A stretch of DNA of 36,812 nucleotides. Origin: Escherichia coli. GTDB taxonomy: Bacteria > Pseudomonadota > Gammaproteobacteria > Enterobacterales > Enterobacteriaceae. Within the stretch, counting starts at the first letter, position 1; each line of letters starts with the position of its first letter. Under the pieces are notes generated by a model. The model did not search any database, was not told the origin of the DNA, and worked only from the letters and a program-made list of their open reading frames with translations. This document shows, piece after piece, positions 7,839-7,873 of the stretch. The stretch is taken from NCBI RefSeq assembly GCF_003334315.1, contig NZ_QOWR01000048.1; one strand, written 5' to 3'. Position numbers and translations under genes: made by a program.

Positions 7839-7873
7839 TATAATGCGCGCCAATTGACTCTTGAATGGTTTCA
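7839..7873 (+). promoter_or_regulatory. Candidate pykF promoter -10 (TATAAT, 7839-7844) with a Cra/FruR-like operator TGAATGGTTTCA (7862-7873) just downstream
   Basis: Consensus -10 hexamer; the downstream near-palindrome matches the Cra half-sites TGAA...TTCA. Cra repression of pykF is established; the exact site assignment is my inference. Confidence 0.4.

Follow-up and report, generated by a model that had tools for sequence, protein, structure and literature searches.

The distal promoter of pykF and its Cra (FruR) operator in Escherichia coli

The DNA upstream of pykF in this Escherichia coli strain carries what we consider, at a probability of about 0.93, to be the distal sigma-70 promoter of the gene together with its single Cra (FruR) operator. 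Both elements sit in the 556-bp intergenic region between fumD (ydhZ) and pykF, where the gene order is fumD-ynhH-pykF-lpp (Table 1). The window, by which we mean the whole 36,812-nt stretch of DNA that was analysed, is an E. coli chromosome segment running from ydhS to fadK, and is collinear with MG1655 1,747,618-1,784,429 at an identity of ∼99.2%. Coordinates were converted as window = MG1655 v3 - 1,747,617, with v2 = v3 - 1,976. The fumD-pykF intergenic region was found in every one of the complete E. coli genomes searched (5,426/5,426).

Table 1. Features of the fumD-pykF region (window coordinates).
Feature	Position	Strand	Basis or remark
fumD/ydhZ	7315-7524	-	RefSeq annotation
T-rich -35 region TTTTCCTTTT	7814-7823	+	Sequence; no TTGACA-like hexamer
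TATAAT, the -10 hexamer of pykFP (distal pykF promoter)	7839-7844	+	Sequence; Olvera 2009 Table 1; conservation
GC-rich discriminator GCGCGCC	7845-7851	+	Sequence, between -10 and start
Distal transcription start	7850-7852	+	7852 (A) by TSS-seq; 7850 (C) catalogued as -231
5' leader of the long pykF transcript	7852-8080	+	229 nt; Kim 2012 5'UTR
Cra operator CTTGAATGGTTTCAGC	7860-7875	+	Imperfect palindrome; MG1655 1,755,477-1,755,492
ynhH (b4817), 64-codon ORF in the leader	7879-8073	+	RefSeq; TTG start; stop 7 nt before the pykF ATG
Proximal promoter block	7933-7983	+	-10-like TATCCT at 7971-7976; second primary start at 7983
pykF CDS (pyruvate kinase I, 470 aa)	8081-9493	+	RefSeq annotation; ATG at 8081

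Over positions 7283-8183 the window differs from MG1655 by a single mismatch, at 7802, which is a G in the window strain and an A in MG1655 and in all 38 other aligned Enterobacteriaceae. The substitution lies ∼50 nt upstream of the distal start, outside both the -10 hexamer and the operator, and over 7790-7900 none of the complete E. coli genomes matches the window at 100%. The inverted repeat in which it falls (within 7798-7812), TGAAAC-N3-GTTT(T)C(A), is conserved and is located ∼40-54 nt 5' of the distal start. As a candidate Cra half-site this repeat was rejected, its matrix score being 0.9 as it stands in MG1655 and -0.67 as it stands in the window. The divergent gene fumD/ydhZ has a weak start at 7548 on the minus strand (v2 1,753,189; 7 reads in the TSS-seq table of Kim 2012), which is 24 nt before its own ATG and ∼300 bp from the distal start of pykF.

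The distal promoter and its transcription start

A reading of the sequence without database searches had proposed a TATAAT hexamer as the -10 element of a pykF promoter, and the hexamer is located on the plus strand exactly where that reading put it. Its assignment to pykF agrees with a catalogued promoter, pykFP, and with a mapped primary 5' end. The catalogue entry (Olvera 2009, Table 1; PMC2759082) describes pykFP as FruR-regulated, gives its sequence as TGTTTTCCTTTTGGATTAATTTCAGCGTATAATGCGCGC, and places the start at -231, which corresponds to 7850 in the window; part of the listing reads ...CAGCGTATAATGCGCGC, and the listed sequence ends in TATAATGCGCGC. The same paper credits pykFP to Bledig, Ramseier & Saier 1996. 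The mapped 5' end is from Kim 2012 (PMC3415461, supplementary file 2), in which the primary pykF 5' end at v2 1,753,493, or 7852 in the window, has 88 reads. This position is the A of TATAATGCGCGCCA, 7 nt after the -10 hexamer, inside the 5-9 nt that the sigma-70 class calls for between a TATAAT-like hexamer and a primary 5' end. The RNA used in that work was exonuclease-treated and triphosphate-enriched and came from MG1655 in mid-log growth on M9-glucose, i.e., from glucose-grown cells, in which Cra is relieved.

The two positions, 7852 by TSS-seq and 7850 in the catalogue, are essentially where the sequence-only reading had expected the start (∼7850) rather than far from it, and with 229-231 nt between the distal start and the pykF ATG its estimate of a leader longer than 200 nt is also borne out. 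In glucose-grown JM101, the distal start was absent from 5'RACE, even with closer primers, and Olvera 2009 (PMC2759082) terms it “predicted”. The Cappable-seq supplement gave no coordinates near pykF.

In the -35 region, no hexamer near TTGACA was found at a spacing of 16-18 nt, the best candidates being TTCCTT and TTTCCT, with 2-3 of 6 matches. The T-rich block that occupies this region is conserved in Enterobacteriaceae, and its T-richness is kept throughout the order. Because there is no -35, a simple two-hexamer sigma-70 scan misses the distal promoter, and its sole call, at 7623-7652, is at chance level. Real promoters often have no -35 element, and its absence does not rule out the sigma-70 class. 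Between the -10 and the start, the hexamer is in most taxa followed immediately by GCGC, ACGC or ACGG, and an R-C-G pattern in the discriminator is conserved across the order. GC-rich discriminators of this kind are associated with ppGpp/DksA-sensitive, growth-rate-dependent promoters.

The operator and its conservation

The near-palindrome reported from the sequence at 7862-7873 is present precisely there, as the operator core TGAATGGTTTCA on the plus strand. Since the start is mapped at 7852, the core occupies +11 to +22, with its centre at +16.5, which is the kind of position taken by repressing Cra sites, these either overlapping the promoter or sitting downstream of it. On the minus strand the site reads GCTGAAACCATTCA, and in this orientation it fits the asymmetric Cra consensus RSTGAAWCSNTHHW, which reportedly goes back to Ramseier in 1995, at 14 of 14 positions; the window contains two exact matches to this 14-mer, versus 0.42 expected. 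Compared with the 12-mer core TGAAWCGWTTCA, the operator agrees at 11 of 12 positions, and the window holds one match to that core at ≤1 mismatch, versus 0.51 expected (38 of 100 shuffles had at least one). TATAAT itself occurs 12 times in the window, versus 16.4 expected. Both the hexamer and the 12-mer are thus unremarkable as strings, and the sequence statistics by themselves are weak; the argument is therefore built on position, on matrix scores, on conservation and on the literature. Two published forms of the Cra motif, ctgaAtCGaTtcag from ChIP-exo and gcTGAAtCGaTTCAgc from RegulonDB, are close to the operator, which departs from them in having GG for the central CG, at a motif position that is among the more informative.

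Scoring with a Cra matrix, which the sequence-only reading had suggested as a check, came out in favour of the site by two routes. In the RegulonDB matrix scan of Mendoza-Vargas 2009 (PMC2760140, supplementary file 6), the entry “pykF FruR GACTCTTGAATGGTTTCAGCAC 15.09” covers 7856-7877, and is the one entry for pykF in the file. Its score is the second-highest among the 11 distinct FruR sites in that table (others are icd/rluE, 16.21; gpmM, 14.48; nirB, 13.42; pfkA, 13.14; mtlA and pck, 12.74). A leave-one-out 16-mer matrix was also derived, from the operators of pfkA, gpmM, mtlA, nirB, pck and icd and two fruB sites (eight in all, without pykF). Its score for the pykF site, 14.97, is the highest among ∼73,600 positions on both strands of the window, while the maxima of shuffled windows have a mean of 13.08 (sd 1.09) and reach 14.97 in 1 of 30 cases. 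Together with the complete fit to the consensus and the likeness to the fruB proximal operator, these scores uphold the assignment of the palindrome to Cra.

The site appears to be the only one of its kind at this locus, as no second Cra site at ≤2 mismatches from the 12-mer core was found in 7525-8080. The second-best matrix match of the window, ACTGTAGCAATTGAGC at 7626-7641 (13.5), does fall between fumD and pykF, closer to the fumD promoter, and was considered as a second Cra site; it is probably a chance match, because it is not conserved even in E. albertii. Olvera 2009 (PMC2759082) puts the Cra site 197 nt before the ATG, and for the lone candidate the centre is 213.5 nt upstream. Searching the literature for the string of the site returned nothing beyond one promoter listing.

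Conservation was evaluated in 80 pykF loci spread over Enterobacterales, with genera including Escherichia, Salmonella, Klebsiella, Citrobacter, Enterobacter, Serratia, Yersinia, Rahnella, Pantoea, Erwinia, Dickeya, Pectobacterium, Proteus, Photorhabdus, Xenorhabdus, Edwardsiella, Hafnia and Budvicia. The sequence TGAAWGGWTTCAGC is kept in 78 of the 80, at 211-281 nt 5' of the pykF ATG, and the two exceptions are a Plesiomonas MAG and Rosenbergiella. Its conserved form is TGAA[T/A]GG[T/A]TTCA followed by an invariant GC. All variation falls on the two degenerate (W) positions of the Cra consensus, the central G is invariant despite being non-consensus, and the columns flanking the operator are divergent and of low information. 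A -10 hexamer is present in all 79 operator-bearing sequences (TATAAT in 73, TATACT in 6), separated from the operator core by 15-18 nt, most commonly 17 nt. This is the pattern that a promoter-plus-operator module under purifying selection should have.

The site lies within the transcribed leader, and the palindrome could in principle act in RNA, as a hairpin or as a pairing partner affecting stability or translation, with its likeness to a Cra site being incidental. The minimum-energy fold of 7852-7985 pairs the right half of the operator, GGUUUCAGC, with GCUGAGAC at 7923-7931, and the latter block is conserved in Enterobacteriaceae. However, the energy of the local hairpin is -1.8 kcal/mol (z = 0.22), shuffled sequences fold more stably than the 49-nt and 134-nt segments (z = +1.46 and +1.14, respectively), and Rfam has no RNA family in 7400-8300. 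Positions 5 and 8 of the palindrome vary independently (T..T, A..T, T..A), with no covariation, while the invariant GC is found on one flank only, as expected of an asymmetric Cra site. Furthermore, the downstream block is missing outside Enterobacteriaceae, where the operator persists, and mutation of the site de-represses expression rather than abolishing it (Kotte 2014). A role in RNA is on these grounds very improbable. The block at 7923-7931, GCTGA(A/G)(A/C)C, is the reverse complement of the operator right half GTTTCAGC, but it does not score as a Cra site.

The central dinucleotide GG, being non-consensus for Cra, might instead point to a different LacI-family repressor or to an unrelated factor as the protein that binds the palindrome. 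A central CG and AT-rich arms are common to LacI-family operators. We give this reading hardly any weight, as the lone pykF entry in the RegulonDB-matrix scan is for FruR (PMC2760140), the fruB proximal operator has nearly the same sequence, and the literature assigns the regulation of pykF exclusively to Cra (Lehning 2017). There is next to no chance that the conservation is that of protein coding, with the motif encoding the N-terminus of a leader peptide, LNGFS..., from a TTG at 7861. An ORF starting LNGFS... is present in many genera, and the RefSeq ynhH is in the same frame, with its start 18 nt further downstream, but all 14 bases of the motif are invariant, synonymous positions included, the motif is equally conserved in taxa that have no leader ORF (e.g., K. 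oxytoca, Yersinia, Proteus), and the codon-position signal over ynhH is almost flat.

Tandem promoters, the leader and the reach of Cra control

The pykF gene has at least two conserved promoters. Kim 2012 (PMC3415461) reports a second pykF start at v2 1,753,624, or 7983 in the window, with 145 reads and a 98-nt 5'UTR. It coincides with the -97 end (7983/7984) of Olvera 2009 (PMC2759082), who found 5' ends at -34, -80 and -97 by 5'RACE, and who also obtained the -97 and -34 products in vitro, the former with the sigma-70 as well as the sigma-38 holoenzyme. A directed RACE start is at -78; in window coordinates, the starts other than 7983/7984 are at ∼8001-8003 and ∼8047. Among 39 Enterobacteriaceae, positions 7933-7978 are near-invariant, and equally so whichever codon position of ynhH is considered. 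The promoter of the 7983 start is 110 nt downstream of the operator, and the block at 7933-7983 probably represents a conserved proximal promoter out of reach of block by Cra.

The dependence of pykF on Cra, and its de-repression when the site is mutated, are taken from the literature. Gerosa 2013 made the pykF promoter constitutive by swapping a transcription factor site that does not overlap the polymerase site. Kotte 2014 mutated the Cra site in pPpykF-gfp to obtain a de-regulated reporter, pPpykF*-gfp, and estimated Cra occupancy from the ratio of regulated to de-regulated activity, an estimate that went up with gluconeogenic flux; the mutated site is not given in the supplement of that paper. 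According to Lehning 2017, pykF is sigma-70-dependent and repressed by Cra, which is its sole regulator, and has a small dynamic range. In transcriptomes, pykF behaves as a Cra-repressed gene on acetate and succinate. Of 17 known Cra sites, 13 were recovered in a ChIP-exo study, which does not name pykF among the four that were missed; for pykF this is indirect evidence. The proposal that Cra represses pykF from a site just 3' of the promoter accords with the published reporters that are de-regulated by Cra-site mutation.

The tandem arrangement also bears on how much of pykF expression the operator controls. The distal promoter and operator may be real but minor, most pykF mRNA arising from proximal starts that escape Cra, so that the element would be a weak modulator and not the main pykF promoter. 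Consistent with this, 5'RACE gave only the -34, -80 and -97 ends, and the in vitro products were -97 and -34 (PMC2759082), with the directed RACE start at -78 likewise being proximal. The TSS-seq reads number 145 at 7983 versus 88 at 7852 (PMC3415461), the block 5' of 7983 is as conserved as the operator, and pykF reporters differ little between carbon sources (Lehning 2017). On the other hand, the distal read count is less than 2-fold below the proximal one, the -10/operator module is conserved order-wide, and thus more broadly than the proximal block, and removal of the Cra site measurably alters reporter output (Gerosa 2013, Kotte 2014). We regard a minor distal promoter as possible but doubtful, and the question it raises is one of magnitude, not of the identity of the elements.

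For the distal promoter with its Cra operator, the following mechanism is suggested by the positions of the elements. RNA polymerase would use the consensus -10 and start at ∼7850-7852 with no usable -35, probably leaning on the T-rich upstream tract. A dimer of Cra, a LacI-family repressor, would bind the imperfect palindrome, inside the DNA that is covered by polymerase in the open complex. At low glycolytic flux, i.e., on gluconeogenic substrates, effector-free Cra would occupy the site, and pykF transcription would drop. Since the open complex makes its downstream contacts over the DNA that holds the operator, Cra would be expected, once bound, either to exclude polymerase or to block promoter escape, by steric occlusion. 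Sugar-phosphate effectors release Cra/FruR at high glycolytic flux; here fructose-1-phosphate (possibly fructose-1,6-bisphosphate) would free Cra from the operator and allow the promoter to fire, which would be the “catabolite activation” of pykF. Given the tandem promoters, Cra would govern only the distal share of pykF transcription. Its control is probably only partial because further promoters sit downstream of the operator, at 7983 and possibly at ∼8001 and ∼8047, and partial control would in turn explain the small dynamic range of pykF reporters.

Transcripts from 7983 and from the more downstream starts do not contain the ynhH start, and the distal transcript alone carries ynhH. It is conceivable, although we think it a long shot, that Cra sets the kind of pykF mRNA that is made as well as its amount, the distal mRNA having ynhH translationally coupled to pykF and the proximal mRNA being uncoupled. 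If this were true, the invariance throughout the order of a sub-consensus operator (GG for CG) and the tandem conserved promoters would have been selected to tune a partial switching between isoforms. A leader-spanning ORF that ends 5-14 nt before the ATG is present in most of the 80 Enterobacterales. For ynhH itself, the entropies at the three codon positions are nearly flat (0.80/0.82/0.90) and the indels are often not multiples of 3, and coding constraint on ynhH is thus unsupported as the reason for conservation of the leader; no NCBIfam model and no paper were found for ynhH. The pykF ATG is preceded by a weak Shine-Dalgarno-like AAGA. The pykF frame is open upstream to an ATG within the operator (7865-8080), which gives a 542-aa ORF. 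An N-terminally extended PykF from the ATG at 7865 was rejected; this ORF is an accident, because only 2 of 79 sequences, from E. coli and E. albertii, have it.

Comparison with known systems

The distal promoter of pykF and its Cra operator are already known. They have been in the literature since Bledig, Ramseier and Saier in 1996, which later papers cite for Cra binding at pykF. The promoter is present in RegulonDB/EcoCyc and serves as a reporter of glycolytic flux. The value of the present analysis is therefore confirmatory, in that a reading of raw sequence placed a real promoter and operator to the base. Several modest additions can be made. The -10/operator module, including its non-consensus central G, is conserved order-wide in Enterobacterales. 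Triphosphate-enriched sequencing backs the distal start, versus one negative RACE report. Finally, pykF has at least two conserved promoters and only one of them is open to block by Cra, which may explain the small range of the flux sensor.

Compared with pykFp and its Cra operator in E. coli K-12 (RegulonDB/EcoCyc), the window holds the same DNA, with agreement in promoter sequence, in the start at -231 and in the FruR label. There is no material difference between the two, the discrepancies being a start at 7852 (TSS-seq) versus 7850 (catalogue) and the A-to-G change at 7802. The closest relative among other operators is the proximal Cra operator of fruBKA, TTCTTGAAACGTTTCAGC, to which the pykF 18-mer CTCTTGAATGGTTTCAGC is identical at 15 of 18 positions, including TCTTGAA and GTTTCAGC. 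Both are repressing sites of the same LacI-family protein. They differ at the centre, which is AC-G in fruB and TG-G in pykF, so that the pykF site is without the consensus central CG, and also in number, as fruB has two operators whereas pykF has one conserved site. The arrangement at pykF is also like that at pfkA and tpiA, in which a Cra operator overlaps polymerase-occupied DNA and the gene is repressed. In pfkA and tpiA, however, the site covers the -35 and/or the -10, while in pykF it is downstream of the start, at +11 to +22.
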